A DNA stretch of 64,000 bases, taken from the NCBI RefSeq assembly GCF_046105845.1, contig NZ_CP151004.1. The stretch is one strand, 5' to 3'. The notes beneath the pieces are model-generated. The model made no database searches. It had not been told where the DNA came from and was given only the letters and a program-made list of their open reading frames with translations. Source of the DNA: Escherichia coli. GTDB taxonomy: Bacteria > Pseudomonadota > Gammaproteobacteria > Enterobacterales > Enterobacteriaceae. The position numbers were made by a program, and so were the translations under genes. Numbering within the stretch: the stretch's first letter is position 1; each line of letters begins with the position of its first letter. This document shows positions 1 through 35,980 of the stretch, piece by piece.

Positions 1-95
1 CAAAATACAGCCAACAACCGCTGGTGAAATATATCGGCCAGCCGGTCGTCAACATTGTCGAACTCAATCTGGCGCTGGATAAGCTTGATGAATAA
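1..95 (+). CDS. kdpC: K+-transporting ATPase subunit KdpC, C-terminal fragment (5' end outside window)
   Basis: Frame-3 translation ...[22 protein letters not shown], stop TAA 93-95 overlapping kdpD start; matches remembered KdpC C-terminus and kdp operon context. Confidence 0.7.
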
Positions 96-2772
96 CGAAC
101 CCTTACGTCCCGATCCCGATCGTCTGCTGGAACAAACTGCCGCGCCGCATCGGGGGAAGCTGAAAGTTTTCTTCGGTGCCTGTGCGGGCGTCGGGAAGAC
201 CTGGGCGATGCTGGCAGAGGCCCAGCGACTGCGGGCGCAAGGGCTGGATATTGTGGTTGGCGTGGTTGAAACCCACGGGCGGAAAGATACCGCCGCAATG
301 CTGGAAGGGCTGGCTGTTCTGCCGCCCAAACGCCAGGCGTACCGTGGGCGGCACATCAGCGAGTTTGATCTCGATGCCGCCCTCGCCCGCCGTCCGGCGC
401 TGATCTTAATGGACGAACTGGCGCACAGTAATGCGCCAGGTTCTCGTCATCCTAAACGCTGGCAGGACATCGAAGAGCTGCTGGAAGCGGGCATTGATGT
501 TTTCACAACCGTCAACGTTCAGCATCTGGAAAGTCTGAATGATGTGGTCAGCGGCGTCACCGGAATTCAGGTACGGGAAACCGTGCCCGATCCTTTTTTC
601 GATGCCGCCGACGACGTGGTGCTGGTGGACTTGCCCCCGGACGATCTGCGCCAGCGGCTGAAAGAAGGCAAAGTCTATATTGCCGGGCAGGCGGAGCGCG
701 CCATTGAACATTTTTTTCGCAAAGGCAATCTGATCGCCCTGCGCGAACTGGCACTGCGCCGTACTGCCGATCGCGTAGATGAGCAAATGCGCGCCTGGCG
801 GGGGCATCCTGGCGAAGAGAAAGTGTGGCACACGCGCGACGCGATCCTTTTATGCATCGGGCATAACACCGGCAGTGAGAAACTGGTCCGCGCGGCGGCG
901 CGGCTGGCGTCGAGGCTGGGTAGCGTCTGGCACGCGGTGTATGTTGAAACCCCTGCCCTGCATCGCTTACCGGAGAAAAAACGTCGGGCAATTCTCAGCG
1001 CCTTACGTCTGGCGCAGGAGCTGGGCGCGGAGACGGCAACACTTTCTGATCCAGCGGAAGAGAAAGCGGTAGTGCGTTATGCCCGTGAACATAATCTCGG
1101 CAAGATTATTCTCGGTCGCCCGGCCTCACGCCGCTGGTGGCGTCGGGAAACGTTTGCTGACCGACTGGCGCGCATCGCCCCCGATCTCGATCAGGTGCTG
1201 GTCGCGCTTGATGAACCACCCGCCCGCACGATTAACAACGCGCCGGATAGCCGCTCTTTTAAAGACAAGTGGCGGGTACAGATTCAGGGATGCGTGGTTG
1301 CCGCCGCGTTATGCGCCGTTATCACCTTAATTGCCATGCAGTGGCTGATGGCGTTTGATGCCGCCAACCTGGTGATGCTGTATCTACTTGGCGTGGTGGT
1401 GGTGGCGCTATTTTATGGACGCTGGCCTTCGGTGGTTGCTACCGTCATTAATGTGGTGAGTTTCGATCTCTTTTTTATCGCCCCACGCGGCACGCTCGCC
1501 GTCTCTGATGTGCAATATCTGCTGACCTTCGCGGTGATGTTAACCGTCGGGCTGGTGATCGGGAACCTTACTGCTGGCGTGCGTTATCAGGCGCGGGTAG
1601 CCCGTTACCGCGAGCAACGCACACGGCACTTATATGAAATGTCGAAAGCACTGGCGGTGGGCCGCAGTCCGCAGGACATCGCCGCCACCAGCGAACAATT
1701 TATTGCCTCCACGTTTCATGCCCGCAGCCAGGTGTTGCTGCCTGATGACAACGGTAAATTGCAGCCGTTAACACATCCGCAAGGAATGACGCCGTGGGAC
1801 GATGCCATCGCGCAGTGGGGTTTTGATAAAGGCCTGCCTGCGGGTGCGGGCACCGACACGTTACCCGGCGTGCCGTACCAGATTTTGCCGTTAAAAAGCG
1901 GTGAGAAAACCTACGGACTGGTGGTGGTGGAGCCGGGGAATCTGCGCCAGTTGATGATCCCGGAACAGCAGCGCCTGCTGGAGACGTTTACGCTGTTAGT
2001 CGCCAATGCCCTTGAGCGGCTGACGCTAACCGCCAGCGAAGAACAGGCGCGGATGGCAAGCGAACGTGAACAGATCCGCAACGCCCTGCTGGCGGCGCTT
2101 TCGCATGATTTACGCACTCCGCTTACGGTGCTGTTCGGTCAGGCAGAAATCTTAACGCTCGATCTGGCGAGCGAAGGATCGCCCCACGCCCGCCAGGCCA
2201 GCGAGATTCGTCAGCATGTGCTGAACACGACCCGACTGGTGAATAATCTACTGGATATGGCGCGAATTCAGTCCGGCGGCTTTAATTTGAAGAAAGAGTG
2301 GTTAACGCTGGAAGAAGTGGTCGGCAGCGCGCTGCAAATGCTGGAACCGGGTTTATCGTCGCCTATCAATCTTTCTCTGCCAGAACCGCTGACCTTAATC
2401 CGCGTTGACGGGCCACTGTTTGAACGGGTGCTGATTAATCTGCTGGAGAACGCGGTGAAATACGCGGGTGCACAGGCCGAAATTGGTATCAATGCCCACG
2501 TTGAGTGCGAAAATCTAGAACTGGATGTCTGGGATAACGGCCCCGGTCTTCCACCAGGCCAGGAGCAGACGATATTTGATAAGTTTGCTCGCGGGAATAA
2601 AGAGTCGGCGGTACCGGGTGTAGGGCTTGGGTTGGCAATTTGTCGGGCGATAGTGGATGTACACGGCGGCACCATTACCGCATTCAACCGACCGGAAGGT
2701 GGTGCCTGTTTTCGTGTTACACTTCCCCAGCAAACAGCCCCTGAACTTGAAGAATTTCATGAGGATATGTGA
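88..2772 (+). CDS. kdpD: Sensor histidine kinase KdpD (894 aa)
   Basis: ORF 55..2772; internal ATG at 88 gives [16 protein letters not shown]..., Walker-type GACAGVGKT, 4 TM segments, HDLRTP H-box and C-terminal HATPase motifs. Confidence 0.95.
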
Positions 2773-3446
2773 CAAACGTTCTGATTGTTGAAGATGAACA
2801 GGCTATTCGTCGCTTTCTGCGCACGGCGCTGGAGGGCGATGGGATGCGCGTCTTTGAGGCCGAAACGCTGCAACGCGGCTTGCTGGAAGCGGCAACCCGT
2901 AAGCCAGATTTGATTATTCTCGATCTCGGCCTGCCCGATGGTGATGGGATTGAGTTTATCCGCGACCTGCGCCAGTGGAGCGCGGTGCCGGTGATTGTGC
3001 TTTCCGCACGTAGCGAAGAGAGCGACAAAATCGCCGCGCTGGATGCCGGAGCGGATGATTACCTGAGTAAGCCATTTGGTATTGGCGAATTGCAGGCCCG
3101 TCTGCGCGTCGCTTTACGCCGCCACTCCGCCACCACCGCGCCCGATCCGCTGGTGAAATTTTCCGATGTTACCGTCGATTTAGCGGCTCGTGTGATCCAT
3201 CGCGGTGAGGAAGAGGTGCATCTCACACCAATTGAGTTTCGCCTGCTGGCGGTGCTGCTCAACAATGCCGGAAAAGTGCTCACCCAGCGCCAGCTCCTTA
3301 ACCAGGTGTGGGGACCAAACGCGGTCGAACACAGTCATTATTTGCGTATTTATATGGGGCATCTGCGACAAAAACTGGAGCAAGATCCCGCCCGCCCCCG
3401 CCACTTCATTACTGAAACCGGTATTGGGTATCGGTTTATGCTTTAG
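2769..3446 (+). CDS. kdpE: Response regulator KdpE (225 aa), GTG start overlapping kdpD stop
   Basis: [20 protein letters not shown]..., receiver domain plus OmpR-type winged helix; GTG at 2769 within ATGTGA junction. Confidence 0.95.
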   Translation: MTNVLIVEDEQAIRRFLRTALEGDGMRVFEAETLQRGLLEAATRKPDLIILDLGLPDGDGIEFIRDLRQWSAVPVIVLSARSEESDKIAALDAGADDYLSKPFGIGELQARLRVALRRHSATTAPDPLVKFSDVTVDLAARVIHRGEEEVHLTPIEFRLLAVLLNNAGKVLTQRQLLNQVWGPNAVEHSHYLRIYMGHLRQKLEQDPARPRHFITETGIGYRFML

Positions 3447-3454
3447 GCGGTTAA

Positions 3455-3560
3455 ATGCTGGATCCGGCATGAACGCCTTATCCGGCCTACAAAATAGCGC
3501 AAATTCAATATATTGCACCATCTTCCCAGGCCTGATAAGCGTAGCGCATCAGGCAGTCAT
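3455..3560. repeat. REP-type palindromic units in kdpE-pgm spacer
   Basis: ggatccggcatgaacgccttatccggcctac and caggcctgataagcgtagcgcatcaggc, typical REP consensus-like imperfect palindromes. Confidence 0.5.
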
Positions 3561-3564
3561 AAGT

Positions 3565-3596
3565 AAAAAAGGGCGATCTTCCGACCGCCCTTTTTC
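3565..3596. terminator. Bidirectional rho-independent terminator shared by convergent kdpE and pgm
   Basis: aaaaaa-GGGCG-atcttccgac-CGCCC-ttttt: GC stem flanked by A-run and T-run. Confidence 0.55.
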
Positions 3597-3609
3597 TTAT
3601 TAAATGTGT

Positions 3610-5250
3610 TTACGCGTTTTTCAGAACTTCGCTAACAATCTCAACCGCTTCTTTCTCAATCTGCTTGCGATGTTCTTCCCCGAGGAAGCTTTCGCAATAA
3701 ATCTTGTACGCGTCTTCCGTGCCTGACGGACGCGCGGCGAACCAGCCGTTGTCAGTCATCACTTTCAGACCGCCAATAGAAGCACCGTTGCCCGGAGCAG
3801 CAGTCAGGCGTGCGGTGATCGGGTCACCTGCCAGGGTGCTGGCGCTCACCATTTCCGGAGACAGCTTAGACAGCGCCGCTTTTTGTGCGGAAGTCGCAGC
3901 TGCCTGCAAACGGTTGTAGCTCGGCGCACCAAAGCGTTTTGCCAGTTCGTTGTAGTGTTCCTGCGGGTTCTTACCGGTGACAGCGGTGATTTCCGCCGCC
4001 AGCAGACACATGATGATGCCGTCTTTGTCGGTGGACCACGGCGTGCCGTCGAAACGCAGGAAGGAAGCCCCTGCGCTCTCTTCGCCGCCAAAGCCGAAGC
4101 TGCCGTCGAACAGACCATCAACAAACCATTTGAAACCTACCGGGACTTCTACCAGCTTACGGCCCAAATCATTGACCACACGGTCGATCATCGCAGAAGA
4201 AACCAGCGTTTTACCGACAGCAACATCTTTGCCCCACTGCGGACGATGCTGGAACAGGTAGTTGATCGCCACCGCCAGGTAGTGGTTCGGATTCATCAAA
4301 CCTGCCGGAGTGACGATACCGTGACGGTCATAATCCGGGTCGTTAGCAAACGCCAGATCGAACTTATCACGCAGTGCCAGCAGGCCCGCCATCGCACACT
4401 CGGAGGAGCAGTCCATACGGATCGCGCCGTCTTTATCGAGGTGCATAAAGCGGAAGGTTTGATCGACCTGATCGTTAACGATGGTCAGGTTGAGGTTGTA
4501 ATACTCGCCAATGCGCTTCCAGTATTCGATACCGGAACCACCCAGCGGATCAACGCCCAGCGTCAGGCCCGCTTTCTGAATCGCCGCCATATCAACGATA
4601 TCGGCCAGCCCTTCCACAAACGGCTGCACCAGATCCTGCTCTTTCACATGACCGGATGCCATCGCTTCGTCGAGGGAGATACGCTTCACGCCTTTCAGGC
4701 CATCAGCCATCAGTGCGTTGGCCCTGTCTTCCACCACTTTAGTGACGTTGGTATCAGCCGGGCCACCATTTGGCGGATTGTACTTGATACCACCATCTTC
4801 CGGCGGGTTATGAGACGGTGTGATCACGATACCGTCTGCCAGCGGGCCACCTTTTTTATTGTGAACCAGGATGGCATTGGAAACGGCAGGCGTCGGGGTG
4901 AAGCCATTGTTTTCCTGCACAATGACATCAACGCCATTCGCTGCCAGCACTTCCAGTACGGAAATGAACGCAGGCTCGGACAGGGCGTGAGTATCTTTAC
5001 CCACATAGCAAGGGCCAGTGATGCCGTTTTTCGCACGTTCTTCAGCAATTGCCTGAGCGATCGCCAGAATGTGCGGCTCGTTAAAGCTGTGGCGCGCTGC
5101 ACTGCCACGGTGACCGGAAGTACCGAATTTCACCGCGTGCTCCGCATTCCCTGCTTCTGGTTTCAGTACATAATATTGCGCCGTCAGTTGGGCGACGTTA
5201 ATCAAATCACTCTGTTGTGCAGGTTGGCCTGCACGATTGTGGATTGCCAT
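3610..5250 (-). CDS. pgm: Phosphoglucomutase (546 aa)
   Basis: ORF 3610..5301; internal ATG at 5250 gives [22 protein letters not shown]...; TSGHRGS-type phosphoserine loop. Confidence 0.95.
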
Positions 5251-5275
5251 TGCTTTGTCCTTTGTCTGCAACGTT

Positions 5276-5821
5276 TTAGATAGTTCCGCAAACCTTCTCA
5301 ATCAATTCCGCCGGGAATTGCATCGACTGCATGATGTGTTCGATCATGCTGCATTTACGGCCGGTGTTGGTGTTGGTGATCACCCAATACGGCGTGCCAG
5401 GCACATGTTTCGGCTTGGTCTGATTACCATTTTTCAGCAGCGTTTGTTCATCTGCCGCAAAGTAAACGCGTGTACGACCGTGCAACGATTCCGTTGCTTC
5501 GGCAAACGCCTGGGCGTCAAGAGAATATAGTGTAGACAACAGCAGCATAAAGCGATTGACCGCTCGCTTTTGCTCTGCGTATTCATCCGAAAGCAGAAGT
5601 TCACGCATTGCGCGAACCTTGTCTTTAATCGTTTTGACCGGCTTCGCTTCGACGATAGCAGGTGACGCAACGCGAACCTCTTTCGTCACCGGAGCAGCAG
5701 GCTGTGATGCGGCGGAAAATTTCAACATACGCCGTAAAATGTCGGATGCGCTCTCGCCGATATGCTTAGTGTGGCTGGCAATATAGCTGTAGAGTTCATC
5801 ATCAACTTCAATCGTTTTCAT
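5276..5821 (-). CDS. seqA: Replication initiation negative modulator SeqA (181 aa)
   Basis: ORF 5276..5899; internal ATG at 5821 gives [35 protein letters not shown]... Confidence 0.95.
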
Positions 5822-6005
5822 CTTAATCCAGTGCAGTGTCTTAGCTGAATACAAGTCGCCAGGAGTATATGAATAAATCCCGGCAGCGGATAGCGTCAAG
5901 CCTGGCTTGCAGAAAAACTCGGATTAAACCTTATTTGTTGCAGCCCTGTGGCACAATGGTCAACATAATACCCTAACCCGACAACGCGAAAAAAAGAACT
6001 TTGCC

Positions 6006-6770
6006 ATGAAATTGAATATCCGCGCGCAAACTGCACAAAACCAGCACAATAATTCTCCCATCGTTCTTGTCCATGGTCTGTTTGGTAGCCTAGACAACCT
6101 TGGCGTACTGGCTCGCGATCTGGTAAACGATCACAATATCATCCAGGTTGATATGCGTAACCACGGTCTTTCACCGAGAGATCCGGTAATGAATTACCCG
6201 GCGATGGCCCAGGATCTTGTTGATACCCTGGATGCACTGCAGATCGACAAAGCAACATTTATCGGTCACTCCATGGGCGGTAAAGCGGTAATGGCACTTA
6301 CTGCACTGGCCCCCGATCGGATTGACAAGCTGGTGGCAATTGATATTGCTCCGGTCGATTATCACGTTCGCCGGCATGATGAGATTTTCGCGGCCATCAA
6401 CGCAGTCAGTGAATCGGACGCACAAACTCGCCAGCAAGCAGCGGCAATAATGCGCCAGCATCTTAATGAAGAAGGGGTGATTCAGTTTCTGCTGAAATCT
6501 TTTGTTGACGGGGAGTGGCGCTTTAACGTGCCGGTATTGTGGGATCAGTATCCGCATATTGTGGGTTGGGAGAAAATCCCGGCATGGGATCACCCTGCCC
6601 TGTTTATCCCTGGCGGCAATTCTCCGTATGTTAGCGAGCAGTACCGCGATGATTTACTGGCACAATTTCCACAGGCACGGGCGCATGTGATTGCAGGCGC
6701 GGGTCACTGGGTCCATGCTGAAAAACCGGATGCGGTATTACGCGCTATCCGTCGCTATCTCAATGATTAA
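6006..6770 (+). CDS. ybfF: Alpha/beta-hydrolase esterase YbfF (254 aa)
   Basis: ORF MKLNIRAQTAQNQHNNSPIVLVHGLFGS..., GHSMGG nucleophile elbow. Confidence 0.9.
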   Translation: MKLNIRAQTAQNQHNNSPIVLVHGLFGSLDNLGVLARDLVNDHNIIQVDMRNHGLSPRDPVMNYPAMAQDLVDTLDALQIDKATFIGHSMGGKAVMALTALAPDRIDKLVAIDIAPVDYHVRRHDEIFAAINAVSESDAQTRQQAAAIMRQHLNEEGVIQFLLKSFVDGEWRFNVPVLWDQYPHIVGWEKIPAWDHPALFIPGGNSPYVSEQYRDDLLAQFPQARAHVIAGAGHWVHAEKPDAVLRAIRRYLND

Positions 6771-6909
6771 CGCAACTGATTAAAAACCCAGCGTCCGCGT
6801 CGCTTTCCGCGCGTGGGCGTTGGCGTGACTCATCGCGCTGATGTATTATGGCGCGCTATCCATCCGGGCAGAGGCCTGGCTGATTGTTTCCCCCGAAGTC
6901 ACCAAGATC

Positions 6910-7203
6910 ATGGCCAAAGAACAAACGGACCGTACGACATTAGATCTGTTCGCGCACGAGCGTCGACCGGGACGACCGAAAACTAATCCGCTTTCGCGCG
7001 ATGAACAGCTGCGTATTAATAAACGCAACCAGCTAAAACGCGACAAAGTACGTGGCCTTAAGCGTGTCGAACTGAAGCTGAACGCGGAAGCTGTCGAGGC
7101 GCTGAACGAGCTGGCGGAATCGCGCAATATGAGCCGTAGCGAACTGATCGAAGAGATGTTAATGCAGCAACTGGCGGCGCTGCGTAGTCAGGGCATCGTT
7201 TAA
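6910..7203 (+). CDS. ybfE: LexA-regulated small protein YbfE (97 aa)
   Basis: ORF 6841..7203; internal ATG at 6910 gives [28 protein letters not shown]... Confidence 0.85.
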
Positions 7204-7342
7204 ATTTCCACTTTCATGTAGCACAGTGTGCAGTCCTGCTCGTTTGCTGATTCCGCAAGACTGCCTGTTCTGCTATGATTGCCTTTATCCGTGGGCAATT
7301 TTCCACCCCCATTTCAATAAGTTTCAAGAGGTTACTTCACTC

Positions 7343-7873
7343 ATGGCTATCACTGGCATCTTTTTCGGCAGCGACACCGGTAATACCGAAAATATCGCAA
7401 AAATGATTCAAAAACAGCTTGGTAAAGACGTTGCCGATGTCCATGACATTGCAAAAAGCAGCAAAGAAGATCTGGAAGCTTATGACATTCTGCTGCTGGG
7501 CATCCCAACCTGGTATTACGGCGAAGCGCAGTGTGACTGGGATGACTTCTTCCCGACTCTCGAAGAGATTGATTTCAATGGCAAACTGGTTGCGCTGTTT
7601 GGTTGTGGTGACCAGGAAGATTACGCTGAATACTTCTGCGACGCATTGGGCACCATCCGCGACATCATTGAACCGCGCGGTGCAACCATTGTTGGTCACT
7701 GGCCAACTGCGGGCTATCATTTCGAAGCATCAAAAGGTCTGGCAGATGACGACCACTTTGTCGGTCTGGCTATCGACGAAGACCGTCAGCCGGAACTGAC
7801 CGCTGAACGTGTAGAAAAATGGGTTAAACAGATTTCTGAAGAGTTGCATCTCGACGAAATTCTCAATGCCTGA
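7343..7873 (+). CDS. fldA: Flavodoxin 1 (176 aa)
   Basis: ORF 7226..7873; internal ATG at 7343 gives [27 protein letters not shown]..., flavodoxin FMN-binding signature. Confidence 0.95.
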
Positions 7874-8078
7874 TGTGATGCGGCGTAGACTCATGTCTAC
7901 GCCGTATTAATAGATAATGCCAATCAAAATAATTGCTACAAATTTGTAACTTTTGCTGTTGTACCTGTACAATGTCCCGGTGTTCAAGTGGCCTTGCCGT
8001 TGTAAATGTAAGCAGTGCCACGTTTTTATTAACAATATTTGCCAGGGACTTGTGGTTTTCATTTAGGCGTGGCAATTC

Positions 8079-8097
8079 TATAATGATACGCATTATC
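8079..8097 (+). promoter_or_regulatory. Fur box (autoregulatory operator) overlapping the uof start
   Basis: tATAATGATAcGCATTATC, near match to 19-bp Fur consensus GATAATGATAATCATTATC. Confidence 0.7.
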
Positions 8098-8169
8098 TCA
8101 AGAGCAAATTCTGTCACTTCTCCTAATGAAGTGAACCGCTTAGTAACAGGACAGATTCCGCATGACTGA
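8083..8169 (+). CDS. uof: uof leader peptide upstream of fur (28 aa), translationally coupled
   Basis: MIRIISRANSVTSPNEVNRLVTGQIPHD; stop TGA 8167-8169 overlaps fur ATG at 8162. Confidence 0.8.
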   Translation: MIRIISRANSVTSPNEVNRLVTGQIPHD

Positions 8170-8608
8170 TAACAATACCGCCCTAAAGAAAGCTGGCCTG
8201 AAAGTAACACTTCCTCGCTTGAAAATCCTGGAAGTTCTTCAGGAGCCGGACAACCATCACGTCAGTGCGGAAGATTTATACAAACGTCTGATCGATATGG
8301 GTGAAGAAATTGGTCTGGCTACGGTATATCGCGTACTGAACCAGTTTGACGACGCTGGTATCGTCACCCGCCACAATTTTGAAGGCGGTAAATCCGTATT
8401 TGAACTGACACAGCAACATCACCACGATCACCTGATCTGCCTCGACTGCGGCAAGGTTATCGAATTTAGTGATGATTCCATCGAAGCGCGTCAGCGTGAA
8501 ATTGCCGCAAAACATGGCATTCGCCTGACTAACCACAGTCTCTATCTTTACGGTCACTGTGCCGAAGGCGATTGCCGCGAAGATGAGCACGCGCACGAAG
8601 GCAAATAA
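8162..8608 (+). CDS. fur: Ferric uptake regulator Fur (148 aa)
   Basis: ORF MTDNNTALKKAGLKVTLPRLKILEVLQEPDNHHVSAEDLYKRL... with HHHDH and CxxC metal sites. Confidence 0.97.
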   Translation: MTDNNTALKKAGLKVTLPRLKILEVLQEPDNHHVSAEDLYKRLIDMGEEIGLATVYRVLNQFDDAGIVTRHNFEGGKSVFELTQQHHHDHLICLDCGKVIEFSDDSIEARQREIAAKHGIRLTNHSLYLYGHCAEGDCREDEHAHEGK

Positions 8609-8623
8609 GCCAGCCGGAACGAG

Positions 8624-8651
8624 AAAAGCCAACCTGCGGGTTGGCTTTTTT
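8624..8651. terminator. Rho-independent terminator between convergent fur and chiQ
   Basis: aaaaGCCAACCtgcGGGTTGGCtttttt. Confidence 0.6.
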
Positions 8652-8691
8652 ATACACGGGAAATAAGAAAAGCGAGAGTTACAGCTCTCAC

Positions 8692-9018
8692 TTATTTGTT
8701 ATTACTGCGAATTTCCTGCCAGACCTTATCACAGTCGGCTTTTACCGCCTGATCATTTCCGGTTTGCGTTGCGCGCAGACACTGCTGATAATCCAGTACG
8801 CGTACACTTTCCTGATCGGCAAACTGCTGATGTTGTTTCTCTTTCTTCAGCACGTTTAACACGCTCTGGCAGGCTTCAATTTTTTCTGGCGAACCTTGCG
8901 CGGTGTTAATACAGGCGCTGTATGCCTCTTTCAGACGACTGTCTTCCTGTGGCGCGGTTGATTGCGCACAAGCTACCAGCCCCGATGCAATCATGGCGAT
9001 GAGAATCAGTTTTTTCAT
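8692..9018 (-). CDS. chiQ: Lipoprotein ChiQ (YbfN), 108 aa
   Basis: ORF MKKLILIAMIASGLVAC..., lipobox LVAC, downstream of chiP on same strand. Confidence 0.85.
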   Translation of the reverse strand: MKKLILIAMIASGLVACAQSTAPQEDSRLKEAYSACINTAQGSPEKIEACQSVLNVLKKEKQHQQFADQESVRVLDYQQCLRATQTGNDQAVKADCDKVWQEIRSNNK

Positions 9019-10922: not shown

Positions 10923-12587
10923 TTACTCGCCTACTTTCGCCCAGGTATCACGCAGCCCAACGGTGCGGTTAAATACCGGTTTTTCCGCCGTAGAATGGCG
11001 GCTGTCGAGGCAGAAATAACCTTCACGCTCAAACTGGAATGCTTTACCCGCTACCGCGTCTTTCAGAGACGGTTCAGCAAAGCCCTGTTTGATCACCAGC
11101 GATTCCGGGTTAATCACCGACAGGAAATCATCCGCAGCACCTGGGTTCGGCACGCTGAACAGACGATCGTACAGGCGGATTTCAACCGGCAGCGCATGTG
11201 CCGCGCTCACCCAGTGGATAACACCTTTCACTTTACGACCATCTGCCGGATCTTTGCTTAAGGTGTCGGCGTCATAAGTACAGAAGATGGTGGTGATATT
11301 GCCTTCGGCATCTTTCTCCACGCGTTCAGCCTTAATGACGTAAGCATTACGCAGACGCACTTCTTTACCCAGCACCAGACGTTTGTACTGCTTGTTAGCT
11401 TCTTCGCGGAAATCGGCGCGATCGATCCAAATCTCACCGCTAAACGGCACCTGACGGCTCCCCATTTCCGGTTTGTTCGGATGGTTCGGCATGGTGACCA
11501 TTTCGCCTTCGCCATGGTAGTTTTCGATAACCAGTTTCACCGGATCGATAACCGCCATTGCGCGCGGCGCATTTTCGTTGAGATCTTCACGGATGCAGGA
11601 TTCCAGTGACGCCATCTCAATGGTGTTGTCCTGCTTGGTCACGCCGATGCGTTTGCAGAACTCACGAATAGAAGCCGCAGTGTAACCACGACGACGCAGA
11701 CCGGAAATGGTCGGCATACGCGGGTCATCCCAGCCTTCAACGTGCTTGTCGGTCACCAGCAGGTTCAGCTTACGCTTGGACATCACGGTGTATTCCAGAT
11801 TCAGGCGCGAGAATTCGTACTGGCGCGGGTGAACAGGAATGGTGATGTTGTCCAGTACCCAGTCGTACAGACGACGGTTGTCCTGGAACTCAAGCGTACA
11901 CAGAGAGTGCGTAATACCTTCCAGCGCATCGCTGATGCAATGGGTGAAGTCGTACATCGGGTAGATGCACCACTTGTTGCCAGTCTGGTGGTGTTCAGCA
12001 AATTTAATGCGGTACAGCACCGGATCGCGCATTACGATAAATGGCGACGCCATGTCGATTTTCGCACGCAGGCAGGCTTTACCTTCTTCAAAACCACCGG
12101 TACGCATTTTTTCGAACAGCGCCAGGTTCTCTTCAACGCTGCGGTCGCGGTACGGGCTGTTTTTACCCGGCTGCGTCAGGGTGCCGCGGTATTCGCGGAT
12201 CTGTTCCGGTGTCAGTTCATCAACGTACGCCAGGCCTTTATTGATCAGTTCGATCGCATAGGCGTGGAGCTGATCAAAATAATCGGAGGAGTAACGGACG
12301 TTACCAGACCAGTGAAAACCTAACCACTCAACGTCGTTTTTGATCGACTCAACATACTCGATATCTTCTTTTACCGGGTTAGTGTCGTCGAAACGCAGGT
12401 TGCACTGGCCTTTATAGTCCTGGGCGATCCCGAAGTTCAGGCAGATAGATTTCGCATGGCCAATATGCAGATAGCCATTCGGCTCCGGCGGGAAACGGGT
12501 GTGTACTGTGGTGTGCTTACCACTGGCCAGATCTTCATCGATGATCTGACGAATAAAGTTAGTCGGGCGGGCTTCTGCCTCACTCAT
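10923..12587 (-). CDS. glnS: Glutaminyl-tRNA synthetase (554 aa)
   Basis: [50 protein letters not shown]..., HIGH and VMSKR class I motifs. Confidence 0.97.
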
Positions 12588-27659: not shown

Positions 27660-29201
27660 ATGGCTTTTGCCTCATTAATTGAACGCCAGCGCATTCGCCT
27701 GCTGCTGGCGTTATTATTCGGTGCCTGCGGAACGCTGGCCTTCTCTCCTTACGATGTCTGGCCTGCGGCGATTATTTCGCTGATGGGGCTTCAGGCGCTG
27801 ACCTTTAACCGCCGTCCACTCCAGTCTGCCGCTATTGGCTTTTGCTGGGGATTTGGCCTCTTTGGCAGCGGTATTAACTGGGTCTATGTCAGCATCGCGA
27901 CTTTTGGCGGAATGCCTGGCCCGGTTAACATCTTCCTGGTGGTGCTGCTGGCGGCGTATTTGTCGCTGTATACCGGACTGTTTGCTGGCGTGCTGTCGCG
28001 CCTGTGGCCGAAAACCACCTGGCTGCGCGTGGCGATTGCCGCCCCTGCTCTCTGGCAAGTGACCGAGTTTCTGCGCGGTTGGGTGCTGACTGGTTTCCCG
28101 TGGTTACAGTTCGGCTATAGCCAGATTGATGGCCCGTTAAAAGGGCTGGCACCAATAATGGGCGTGGAAGCCATTAACTTCCTGCTAATGATGGTTAGCG
28201 GCCTGCTGGCACTGGCGTTGGTCAAACGCAACTGGCGTCCGCTGGCGGTGGCCGTCGTGCTGTTCGCCCTTCCCTTCCCGCTGCGTTACATCCAGTGGTT
28301 TACCCCGCAACCGGAGAAAACCATTCAGGTTTCGATGGTTCAGGGCGATATTCCGCAATCACTGAAATGGGACGGAGACCAGCTTCTTAATACGCTGAAG
28401 ATTTACTACAACGCAACGGCACCGCTGATGGGCAAATCATCGTTGATTATCTGGCCGGAGTCGGCGATAACCGATCTGGAAATTAATCAGCAACCGTTCC
28501 TCAAAGCACTGGACGGTGAGTTGCGCGATAAAGGTAGCTCGCTGGTAACCGGGATTGTTGACGCGCGTCTCAATAAGCAGAACCGCTACGATACTTACAA
28601 CACCATCATCACGCTGGGGAAAGGTGCGCCGTACAGCTACGAATCAGCCGATCGCTATAACAAAAACCATCTGGTGCCGTTTGGCGAGTTTGTCCCGCTG
28701 GAGTCGATTCTGCGTCCGTTAGCGCCGTTCTTTGATCTGCCGATGTCGTCGTTCAGCCGTGGGCCATATATCCAGCCACCGCTGTCGGTAAACGGTATTG
28801 AGCTTACTGCGGCTATTTGCTACGAGATCATTCTCGGCGAGCAAGTGCGTGATAACTTCCGCCCGGATACCGATTATCTGCTGACTATCTCCAACGATGC
28901 ATGGTTTGGTAAGTCTATTGGTCCATGGCAGCACTTCCAGATGGCGCGAATGCGTGCGCTGGAGTTGGCGCGCCCGCTACTGCGTAGCACCAACAACGGC
29001 ATTACGGCGGTGATTGGTCCGCAGGGTGAGATTCAGGCGATGATCCCGCAATTCACCCGCGAGGTGTTAACCACTAACGTGACGCCGACTACCGGACTTA
29101 CACCGTACGCACGTACCGGCAACTGGCCTCTGTGGGTGCTGACGGCACTGTTTGGTTTTGCTGCTGTGCTGATGAGTCTGCGTCAGCGACGTAAACGTTG
29201 A
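27660..29201 (+). CDS. lnt: Apolipoprotein N-acyltransferase Lnt (about 512 aa)
   Basis: [37 protein letters not shown]..., multi-TM N-terminus, CN-hydrolase domain. Confidence 0.95.
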
Positions 29202-29214
29202 GGTGAATGATGCG

Positions 29215-29249
29215 CTGGCCTGCAAAATTGCATCATTTTTGCAGGCCAG
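29215..29249. repeat. Perfect 13-bp inverted repeat just downstream of lnt
   Basis: CTGGCCTGCAAAA-ttgcatca-TTTTGCAGGCCAG; no U-tract on either strand. Confidence 0.6.
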
Positions 29250-29304
29250 ATAAACCGTTAACACCGCATCCGGTATCAACAAAACATACTTTCTCATTAA
29301 GCGG

Positions 29305-29332
29305 TGGGGCGTGATTATCATGCCCCTTTTTT
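29305..29332 (+). terminator. Rho-independent terminator (plus-strand orientation) abutting the stop of the minus-strand rhomboid gene
   Basis: GGGGCgtgattatcatGCCCCtttttt. Confidence 0.55.
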
Positions 29333-29333
29333 C

Positions 29334-31211
29334 TTACGGTTCAGGGATACAAGCCACATTGCCATATTGGGGATGACGAATAATTGCCTGCGGATCAAGC
29401 GAGCGCGTCCTGTCCAGTTGGATTAACCCGTTCTTCGCCATAACAAATATTTTTCTACCATCCGCTGAAAAACGAAGGTGATTAACGTAGCTGGCAGGAT
29501 AAACGCCAATAATCTGCCCGGCATTAATATTGAGCTGGATGACATAACCTTGCAGGCCATATGACACCAACGCTAAATATTGACCGTCCGGGCTAATACC
29601 CTCAACGGAATAAACGCTCCTGCTACACCATTGCGTCATAATACTGGCTTGTTGATCCTCAGCTCTTATACGTGAAATCCCCTGGCTATCGGCAAAAATA
29701 ATCTCTCCATTTTTTGGTCGGAATCCCATCGCAGAAACGACACCACGCGCATCACCTGCGGGAAAGTCTTCTTTCTGATGCGTGATGGTATTGATGCGTA
29801 CAATGTCACCTCTGACCATACCGGGTATCAACAATGTTTTTTCATCCGGGGAAAGTGCCATAACCCAGGCACCAGGTTTATTACTCGTCCCCGTCCCGTC
29901 GTATTTCTCCAGCGGGATATCCGCCACATGCTGATAAGTCACCAGATCAATGGCTGACACACTATTACTGGTGCGATTCATCACCCAAGCTTTTGTGCCA
30001 TCACGCGAGAGGATAAGACTGTCAGGATGTGCACCGGTGGTAATCGACTGAATAATCTCCCCCGTCGCCACGTTAATGACCGATAACGCATTCGCTTCAA
30101 ATGAAGTCGCATAAAGCAACGTTTCATCCGGGCTTAGCGCCAGCGATCTGACGCCCTGATCTTTACAGCCACCACAATGTTTGACTGACTTTTCTTTCGC
30201 TATGGGGGCTGTAAAGGTATGCAGGATTTTCTTTTGTCCGAGGTCGAAAACAACAATGCTGTTGGTGTTTTCAATTGCGGCATACAACGTATTACCATCC
30301 CGACTGATCGCCATATCATGGATATCGGAAATCTCAGCGAGCAAATCACCACTGGCCTGTTCACGACTTACCGGAGCGGATAATGTTTCCCTGAGGGCGT
30401 TGCGTTCCTCCGCTAACTGCTGCTTTTTTTGCCGTCGCTCTTGTTCAATCTCCTGTGGATAAAACTCTTCACGCAGGCTTTGCCTGACTTGTAAAACTGA
30501 CTCACCCATCTGCTGCTGCGCAAGCCAGATAGCCCCGGTCAGAAGAAGACTACCCGCAACAATAATCCCGCCTTCCGTAACAAGCCGGTTTTGCCCATAT
30601 AAACGCGCACTCAGCCCCCCCATCGCGCCACCCGCAATCAGGCCGCCAATGTGGCAAGCGTTATCTATTCCTGTTTGCCGGGCACCGTACAACAGTGTCA
30701 GCGCCACCATACCCAGCAGAGGAAATACTCGCCGCTGGTTTTTATGGTGTGTGCCCGCACCTGAAGCAAGCTGTGTTGCTATCGCAGCGCCAGCTATTCC
30801 CATAATCGCCCCGGATGCCCCAACGCTGATGACTATCTGCTCACTTTCGCGTAACGCATAACAGGCACTGATTAGCCCACCAAAGACGCCGGAGAATAAC
30901 CAGATAATCAGAAGTCGCCATTTCCCCAGTATCCGCTCCGCCACTGCCCCCACCACCAGAAGTGCAAACATATTCATCAGCAAATGGGGAAAACTACTGT
31001 GCAGAAAGACACTGCTCAATAAGCGCCAGGATTCGCCCGACAACGTGAGAGAAGTAACGTTAGCACCGAGATGGATGAGTGCGGATTGATCGACTTCTTC
31101 ATAACTCATCCATTGTGCGAGGTAACAAAATATCCCAACACAGAGCGCAAAAAGGATAAGGGTTATTGCGGGTAATTGAACATTTAACGGCTTAACCGAA
31201 GATGCAGACAT
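29334..31211 (-). CDS. Rhomboid-family intramembrane serine protease (7 TM) fused via a charged linker to a C-terminal YVTN/YncE-like beta-propeller (625 aa); not a gene I recognise from E. coli K-12
   Basis: Single 625-codon ORF. N-terminal residues 1-235: rhomboid motifs WR (62-63), HxxxN (H76, N80), GASG with catalytic Ser133, ACHIGG with His187, plus seventh hydrophobic helix 216-232. Residues 240-285 charged (EEFYPQEIEQERRQKKQQLAEERNALRE). Residues 286-625: about seven repeats of [LI]S[PR]DG..[LI]...N......[IV]D-type beta-strand blades. Confidence 0.85.
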   Translation of the reverse strand: MSASSVKPLNVQLPAITLILFALCVGIFCYLAQWMSYEEVDQSALIHLGANVTSLTLSGESWRLLSSVFLHSSFPHLLMNMFALLVVGAVAERILGKWRLLIIWLFSGVFGGLISACYALRESEQIVISVGASGAIMGIAGAAIATQLASGAGTHHKNQRRVFPLLGMVALTLLYGARQTGIDNACHIGGLIAGGAMGGLSARLYGQNRLVTEGGIIVAGSLLLTGAIWLAQQQMGESVLQVRQSLREEFYPQEIEQERRQKKQQLAEERNALRETLSAPVSREQASGDLLAEISDIHDMAISRDGNTLYAAIENTNSIVVFDLGQKKILHTFTAPIAKEKSVKHCGGCKDQGVRSLALSPDETLLYATSFEANALSVINVATGEIIQSITTGAHPDSLILSRDGTKAWVMNRTSNSVSAIDLVTYQHVADIPLEKYDGTGTSNKPGAWVMALSPDEKTLLIPGMVRGDIVRINTITHQKEDFPAGDARGVVSAMGFRPKNGEIIFADSQGISRIRAEDQQASIMTQWCSRSVYSVEGISPDGQYLALVSYGLQGYVIQLNINAGQIIGVYPASYVNHLRFSADGRKIFVMAKNGLIQLDRTRSLDPQAIIRHPQYGNVACIPEP

Positions 31212-31368
31212 AAGGTGTTTCTTCCTTGAAAAGACAGGTAAAAAGCATTTTTCCCGTGTGCAGTTATCATCCCGGCAAACGTCCCATGCCGAAAAGATAA
31301 CTCTGTCCGAAATATGACTTTTTCAGCCTAAAATTACAATCGTAATTAATTCATCCCTAAGTATTTTT

Positions 31369-31384
31369 TGGCATGTAAGTTGCT
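31369..31384 (+). promoter_or_regulatory. Candidate sigma54 (-24/-12) promoter directed toward gltI
   Basis: TGGCATgtaagTTGCT: GG and GC elements at the consensus spacing of TGGCACG-N4-TTGCA. Confidence 0.4.
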
Positions 31385-31451
31385 TTATTTACTGTGTAAG
31401 CAATGAAATCAGCCGCGACGCAACCGGGTTGCACCACCACAAATCAGCGGT

Positions 31452-35942: not shown

Positions 35943-35967
35943 GCCGGATGACATCACGCCATCCGGC
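35943..35967. repeat. Short REP-like hairpin in the 44-bp rihA-ybeL spacer
   Basis: GCCGGATGacatcacgcCATCCGGC. Confidence 0.4.
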
Positions 35968-35980
35968 ACCACTCATTTCA

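Follow-up and report, generated by a model that had tools for sequence, protein, structure and literature searches.

A speF-less kdpE–pgm junction in Escherichia coli: a BIME and a shared predicted terminator in an inherited haplotype that most likely reflects an old loss

In Escherichia coli K-12, the convergent genes kdpE and pgm are separated by an operon for SpeF and PotE, the low-pH, ornithine-inducible ornithine decarboxylase and putrescine–ornithine antiporter. In the 64,000-nucleotide stretch of an E. coli genome analyzed here (contig NZ_CP151004.1 of assembly GCF_046105845.1; hereafter the window), the same two genes lie almost end to end. This raises the question of what fills the short gap between them, whether the operon is gone from the genome or only from this place, and whether its absence is an event of this strain, an older loss, or the original state of the locus.

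The gap extends from 3447 to 3609 (163 bp) and is bounded by the stop of kdpE at 3446 and the stop of the convergent pgm at 3610. The flanking genes were identified with NCBIfam equivalog models. The response regulator gene kdpE (2769–3446, + strand) scored 487.6 bits against a cut-off of 325, and the phosphoglucomutase gene pgm (3610–5250, − strand) scored 1073.4 bits against a cut-off of 778. Farther out, kdpD (88–2772, + strand) and seqA, which lies beyond pgm on the − strand, both scored far over their cut-offs. The stop codon of kdpE is TAG (3444–3446), that of pgm reads TTA on the + strand (3610–3612), and the 1,641-bp coding sequence of pgm is equal to the one annotated in TUM14771.

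The first 10 bp after the kdpE stop (3447–3456) are a spacer, GCGGTTAAAT, which forms the left boundary of the speF-less haplotype. A Y-type repetitive extragenic palindrome follows (REP 1, 3457–3490, + strand; GCTGGATCCGGCATGAACGCCTTATCCGGCCTAC), with three mismatches to the REP consensus; in a pattern search with the supplied consensus, the number of matches expected by chance at three or fewer mismatches was 0. A 37-bp linker (3491–3527) leads to REP 2 (3528–3556, − strand), which is of the Z type, is inverted relative to REP 1, and has as its core (3530–3554) an exact GCCTGATAAGCGTAGCGCATCAGGC. The two REPs are joined by an inverted repeat (3477–3488 and 3528–3539) with arms that are 92% complementary. 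The linker was kept in every allele and species that we aligned. It carries a putative IHF site, ATTCAATATATTG, at 3503–3515, with one mismatch to WATCAANNNNTTR; the background in the window is 0.12 such sites per 163 bp.

Beyond REP 2, a putative bidirectional intrinsic terminator common to kdpE (+) and pgm (−) is predicted at 3561–3600. Its hairpin (3566–3595) consists of a 13 + 13-nt stem (3566–3578 and 3583–3595, arms 92% complementary) closed by a TTCC loop, with a run of six A upstream and a run of five T downstream. The predicted RNA fold has an energy of −17.3 kcal/mol in the kdpE transcript (z −5.0) and −22.8 kcal/mol in the pgm transcript (z −6.8), and none of 200 shuffled sequences was as stable in either direction. 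A consensus terminator scan did not call this hairpin, probably because pairing between the A and T runs lengthens the stem. An Rfam scan of 3200–3900 returned no curated RNA at threshold and REP-derived families only below it, namely the REP-associated ES036/CssrF at 3491–3533 (31.7 bits, threshold 37.6) and naRNA4 (26.3 bits, threshold 59.5).

Judged from its sequence, 3447–3609 is a normal spacer between convergent genes, made up of one bacterial interspersed mosaic element (BIME) and one predicted bidirectional terminator. It has much in common with the BIME-1/RIP elements of E. coli: two inverted REP palindromes of about 35 nt each, both of which fold as hairpins, an IHF-like site in the linker, a wholly extragenic position between the 3′ ends of kdpE and pgm, and membership in a multi-copy family. 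Probes containing these REPs match a median of 10–11 places per E. coli genome, and a probe that carries the second BIME matches a median of 39. Within the 64-kb window, the gap copy alone lies within three mismatches of either REP pattern searched. The linker at 3491–3527 may be the L-type linker of the BIME-1/RIP family. The window element differs from that family in the three substitutions that separate REP 1 from the consensus used, and its IHF site is a prediction from sequence.

How does this compare with K-12? In MG1655, the order is pgm–ybfP–ybfG′–ybfI′–potE–speF–speFL–kdpE (b0688–b0694), where ybfG and ybfI are pseudogenes and speFL is a leader, and pgm and kdpE are 5,857 bp apart. 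The original prediction, which set the window against the K-12 gene order (pgm, then potE and speF, then kdpE), had this order right. Its description of the window was also borne out: kdpE directly adjoins pgm across a 163-bp gap, pattern search and folding recovered the REP-like palindromes and a single bidirectional terminator (itself a prediction) in that gap, and speFL–speF–potE is absent from its usual slot. The window and K-12 share the flanking genes, their orientations, and the pgm-proximal BIME and terminator, but the window is without speFL, speF, potE, ybfI′, ybfG′, and ybfP. When the junctions were aligned, homology was limited to the last, pgm-proximal 160 bp of the K-12 gap (the REP pair and the terminator), at 86% identity. 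The end of kdpE itself also differs, with a TAG stop in the window and TGA in K-12, and with 93.3% identity over the 3′-terminal 150 bp.

A sensitive blastn search of the 163-bp gap found no remnant of speFL, speF, or potE. Consequently, a loss has to be read from the phylogenetic distribution of the operon and not from a scar. One candidate remnant was considered and rejected: GCGGTTAA, after the kdpE stop, resembles the 3′ end of potE (…CACGGTTAA). The homologous spacers of “E. coli” SCPM-O-B-8794 (hereafter L003), E. whittamii, and E. coli EcPF15 lack such a match, and the blastn result, with no other piece of the operon in the gap, is also opposed to it.

The operon might nevertheless have been relocated within the source genome instead of being lost. 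The 64-kb window encodes no SpeF or PotE homologue detectable by tblastn, which counts against relocation. Among 5,426 complete E. coli genomes, a 500-bp speF probe has matches in 5,125, of which 81 match at 60–80% identity only. The one such match that was sampled (strain H255) is the speC paralogue, at 77% identity, so weak matches in speF-less genomes do not speak for a displaced operon. By this count, speF is missing from 382 of the 5,426 genomes, which leaves room for all 353 genomes found to carry a speF-less kdpE–pgm junction; the 5,044 genomes with a true speF and these 353 add up to 5,397, no more than 5,426, as is consistent with mutual exclusion of speF and the junction. As a proxy for the source genome, speF was appended to the junction probe, and 58 of the best 60 of the 353 junction genomes gained no match anywhere in the chromosome. 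TUM14771 and GN02461 gained one each, which is what relocation would predict, but these extra matches are probably cross-matches to speC. Judged from the window and from these related complete genomes, relocation is a very improbable explanation.

The 353 genomes were identified with a junction probe spanning kdpE to pgm and make up approximately 6.5% of the complete E. coli genomes. In 246 of them, ybfP lies between two BIMEs. The direct junction, as in the window, is present in approximately 107, a figure obtained by subtracting 246 from 353 and hence from the results of two different probes. Genomes with the direct junction include porcine O139:H1-type strains, O145:H28 strains, and the TUM14771 group; their gap is 162–163 bp, and the annotation at the junction consists of kdpE and pgm alone. 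We found no paper describing the kdpE–pgm junction. Hundreds of public complete genomes already carry the configuration with routine annotation, and it is an ordinary accessory-operon polymorphism.

At least four alleles occur at this locus in E. coli: a compact type (kdpE–speFL–speF–potE–56 bp–pgm, as in O157:H7 EDL933 and ST131), the K-12 type, the ybfP–BIME type, and the direct BIME type. The direct junctions of O145:H28 (RM13514, NZ_CP006027.1, 753240–753789), the O139:H1 type (CFSAN018748), and TUM14771 have the same architecture and left boundary as the window. They are 162–163 bp long and 96–98% identical to it, with a small number of substitutions located in the linker and terminator. 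The kdpE–BIME–ybfP–BIME–pgm allele of EcPF15 (NZ_CP054227.1) likewise lacks speF–potE, and after its TAG stop come a homologous spacer and a REP. Its kdpE 3′ end is 99.3% identical to that of the window. For its BIME on the pgm side, BLAST gives 97.9% identity to the window over 140 bp, and the figure for the full 163-bp gap is 93.3%. Unlike the direct junction, this allele has the lipoprotein gene ybfP and two BIMEs, which bring the kdpE–pgm distance to 810 bp. The compact allele, found in O157:H7, ST131, E. albertii, Citrobacter, and Enterobacter, has the same flanks and a pgm-proximal terminator that is 96% identical over 49 bp, but it holds a 4.2-kb operon and no REP where the window has a 114-bp BIME. 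Against the O157-type allele, the window gap is homologous from 3561 onward only, that is, over the terminator.

Since REPs are repeated, they could mislead an assembler, and a collapsed repeat could have removed the operon from the assembly. However, the same junction is found in 353 complete PGAP-annotated genomes and, within the lineage of the window, in three independent assemblies that carry its exact KdpD. An assembly artefact is thus too improbable to carry weight.

The original prediction had proposed either an ancestral state or a REP-associated deletion. A recent REP-mediated deletion, in the source genome or its immediate ancestors and starting from a K-12-like 5.9-kb arrangement, would suit the position of the BIME exactly at the junction and the retention in the window of the pgm-proximal BIME of K-12; the two direct BIMEs around ybfP in the ybfP variant show a layout from which REPs could remove a gene. 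For speF–potE, however, no undeleted allele with REPs at both ends was found; such an arrangement exists for ybfP in the EcPF15-type allele only. K-12 has no REP next to kdpE, and there are none in the 4.26-kb O157 gap or in the gaps of ST131 and E. albertii. Speculation about REP–REP recombination as the cause of the speF–potE loss is thus unsupported, as the speF-bearing alleles offer no second REP as a partner. In addition, distant E. coli lineages share an identical junction, and its orthologues in other species are 86–87% identical, which points to an old event, and the 3′ end of kdpE is not that of K-12. We judge a recent deletion of this kind to be highly unlikely. What remains of the original proposal is an old, inherited haplotype whose boundary is common to unrelated lineages; the idea of an event in the source genome does not hold up.

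REPs may have a more limited role. In the ybfP form, two direct BIMEs with nearly identical first REPs flank ybfP. Recombination between such direct repeats is the most plausible link between the ybfP form and the direct form, whichever arose first, and would plausibly explain the removal of ybfP.

The age and origin of the haplotype can be approached from its boundaries. All E. coli direct junctions that we aligned have the same left boundary, TAG-GCGGTTAAAT-GCTGGATCCGGC. They come from four genome groups told apart by strain designation, among them the porcine O139-type strains, O145:H28, and TUM14771, and from a further, independent SRA assembly that belongs to the lineage of the window. 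An identical boundary argues for one origin and against recurrent deletion. Homologous spacers (GGGAATAAAT, GGGGCTGAAT, and GGTCTGAAT) are present in L003, E. whittamii, and EcPF15, respectively. The kdpE stop codon is TAG in all speF-less alleles examined and TGA in K-12, O157, ST131, and E. albertii. E. whittamii and L003 have the same layout of spacer, both REPs, linker, and terminator, with gaps that are 85.8% and 87.1% identical, respectively, to that of the window, so the junction aligns as an orthologue in other Escherichia at 86–87% identity. From the shared boundary, the orthologous junctions, and the common TAG stop, we infer that the speF-less haplotype is old and of single origin, that it segregates in E. 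coli, and that it is common to sister Escherichia lineages. The source strain would have inherited it, with no operon deletion of its own.

Two observations bear on the identity of the genomes involved. The contig of L003 (NZ_JAATUR010000017.1) is labelled “Escherichia coli”, yet it is 94.2% identical to the window over 8.9 kb (kdpD–kdpE–pgm–seqA–ybfF). Because this is under the usual species level, L003 is likely a member of a cryptic Escherichia clade. The source lineage is itself far from the complete E. coli genomes, with a best identity of 98.5% over 23.7 kb of core genes (5300–29000; 1–9000 was also tested). Only seven public contigs (GCA_018015415.1, ERR13115083, and ERR4034258) encode an identical KdpD, and kdpE is adjacent to pgm at the places listed. 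The source strain probably belongs to a rare lineage on the margin of E. coli.

Whether the speF-less state reflects loss or primary absence depends on how the operon is distributed. We located at least 80 Enterobacterales species loci via KdpE. Among the 80 listed, speFL–speF–potE lies downstream of kdpE in 30, with pgm beyond the operon in 25 of them; kdpE lies within 1.3 kb of pgm without the operon in 41; three have other inserts and six are uninformative. The operon-bearing loci on this list include those of E. albertii, Citrobacter, Enterobacter, Kluyvera, Lelliottia, Leclercia, Cedecea, Trabulsiella, and Atlantibacter. The operon-free loci comprise all of those from Pantoea, Serratia, Dickeya, and Pectobacterium, as well as some Citrobacter, Enterobacter, and Phytobacter species. 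Between E. coli and E. albertii, identity is 87–88% for speF and 88.7% for potE, next to 90–91% for kdpD and 93% for pgm; between E. coli and Citrobacter it is approximately 80–82%. That speF and potE diverge in parallel with their flanks fits vertical descent in Enterobacteriaceae combined with repeated loss.

A piece of the operon is visible in Klebsiella indica TOUT106 (our locus L017, 10672–10849), where the gap between kdpE and pgm keeps the last ~50 nt of potE (…CTGTATGGACTGGTATCGCCGCGCTTTGAGCTGAAAAACAAACACGGTTAA). Read from the sequence of that locus, this remnant clearly marks a separate deletion of the operon, and it indicates that deletion does occur at the kdpE–pgm slot.

Against the kdpE–speFL–speF–potE–pgm arrangement that is spread across Enterobacteriaceae, the window allele is probably an old derived loss. 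In such a loss, the operon of about 4.2 kb would have been replaced by the 114-bp BIME, leaving no remnant. The step that assigns a direction to the change is weakened because E. fergusonii, E. marmotae, E. ruysiae, and Salmonella, like the E. coli representative, lie outside the 80 loci listed. Taking the gap and its history together, we consider it quite likely that the BIME and shared terminator between kdpE and pgm mark an inherited, single-origin speF-less haplotype, with old loss as the most likely source.

The main rival to an old loss is primary absence: the ancestor of Escherichia, or of E. coli and the cryptic clades, would have had kdpE adjacent to pgm, and speF would have been acquired or re-acquired later from relatives. 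The same adjacency in Erwiniaceae, Yersiniaceae, Pectobacteriaceae, E. whittamii, and the L003 lineage is in keeping with this, as are the joining scars of the K-12 allele (the ybfI′ repeat, an additional terminator, and a 42-bp segment duplicated after potE) and the finding that, within E. coli, speF is 92–94% identical while potE is 98–99% identical. However, exactly this slot is where E. albertii and at least 12 further genera have the operon, and its divergence parallels that of kdpD, kdpE, and pgm, as vertical descent predicts. The architecture of the compact O157/ST131 allele is also that of E. albertii. Primary absence is therefore an unlikely account, albeit one with more in its favor than relocation or a recent REP deletion.

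Terminator loops were considered as a further record of this history. In K-12, the copy near potE is similar to that of E. albertii, while the one near pgm has the E. coli form. This reading was set aside, as terminators vary freely between species.

The K-12 allele has peculiarities of its own. Just beyond potE, ybfI′ repeats the 3′ end of kdpE in direct orientation (142 bp, 87–89% identity; 6722–6865 versus 11057–11200 in our K-12 locus, L002), so that kdpE-3′ repeats bracket the speFL–speF–potE block. Just after potE there is also a second terminator copy together with a 42-bp copy of the sequence upstream of ybfP and at the 5′ side of REP 1 (6866–6945 versus 5340–5400 in L002). These repeats resemble the marks that unequal or illegitimate recombination of a speF-bearing haplotype with one bearing ybfG–ybfP would leave. 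The genes of the operon also differ in how much they vary. The speF of K-12 is 94.2% identical to that of O157 (EDL933) and 92.4% identical to that of ST131, with potE at 98.4–99.1% (L002, L088, and L089), and speF is 90–95% identical to K-12 in 3,095 of the 5,426 genomes. This divergence suggests either that the haplotypes at the kdpE/speFL/speF end of the locus are deep or that this end is a recombination hot spot.

One tentative possibility is that the presence/absence polymorphism of the operon predates E. coli and has been kept by selection or by exchange across species, with the K-12 allele as a secondary recombinant. The occurrence of the speF-less BIME haplotype in E. whittamii and in the cryptic lineage, alongside the speF-bearing haplotype in E. 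albertii, is the basis for this suggestion, and the 6–8% difference in speF between E. coli lineages, next to 1–2% in potE, is also in its favor. The K-12 type could then have arisen when the operon was rejoined to a speF-less haplotype bearing ybfG–ybfP, and the marks of that rejoining might be ybfI′ as a remnant of the kdpE 3′ end, the duplicated terminator, and the duplicated REP-proximal segment.

For the bacterial cell, the consequences may be modest. SpeC provides constitutive putrescine synthesis. Carriers of the junction would be without the inducible decarboxylase and antiporter only, making putrescine via the constitutive speC, and the missing route would be a minor one for acid stress and putrescine export. 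A recent pangenome study places speF among the E. coli metabolic genes that are most often pseudogenes (PMC13322260), which fits a dispensable function. Beyond strain bookkeeping, the absence has little significance. As a locus, the kdpE–pgm interval may serve as a tidy case in which an accessory operon between core genes was lost and replaced by a BIME, and in which the alternative haplotypes are maintained in more than one species. Together with the TAG/TGA stop codon linked to it, the junction could be a simple lineage marker.

K-12 is not the default state at kdpE–pgm, nor at two other places in the window. Between lnt and gltI, the window has a 2.2-kb segment (29196–31420) that is absent from K-12. 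Its open reading frame (29334–31211, − strand) encodes a 625-aa protein that combines a rhomboid protease domain at the N terminus with a beta-propeller at the C terminus. Of the 5,426 complete E. coli genomes, 3,231 have the segment, where the annotation reads rhomboid family intramembrane serine protease, and 2,195 lack it, which makes K-12 the minority state there. The IS5D of K-12 is absent from this place in the window. At 35943–35980, rihA adjoins ybeL at a distance of 36 bp with a REP-like palindrome, GCCGGATGACATCACGCCATCCGGC, between them, and the 8-kb ybeQ–ybeR–djlB–ybeT–ybeU–djlC–hscC block of K-12 is absent; the same rihA–ybeL junction is present in 962 of the 5,426 complete genomes, including E2348/69.
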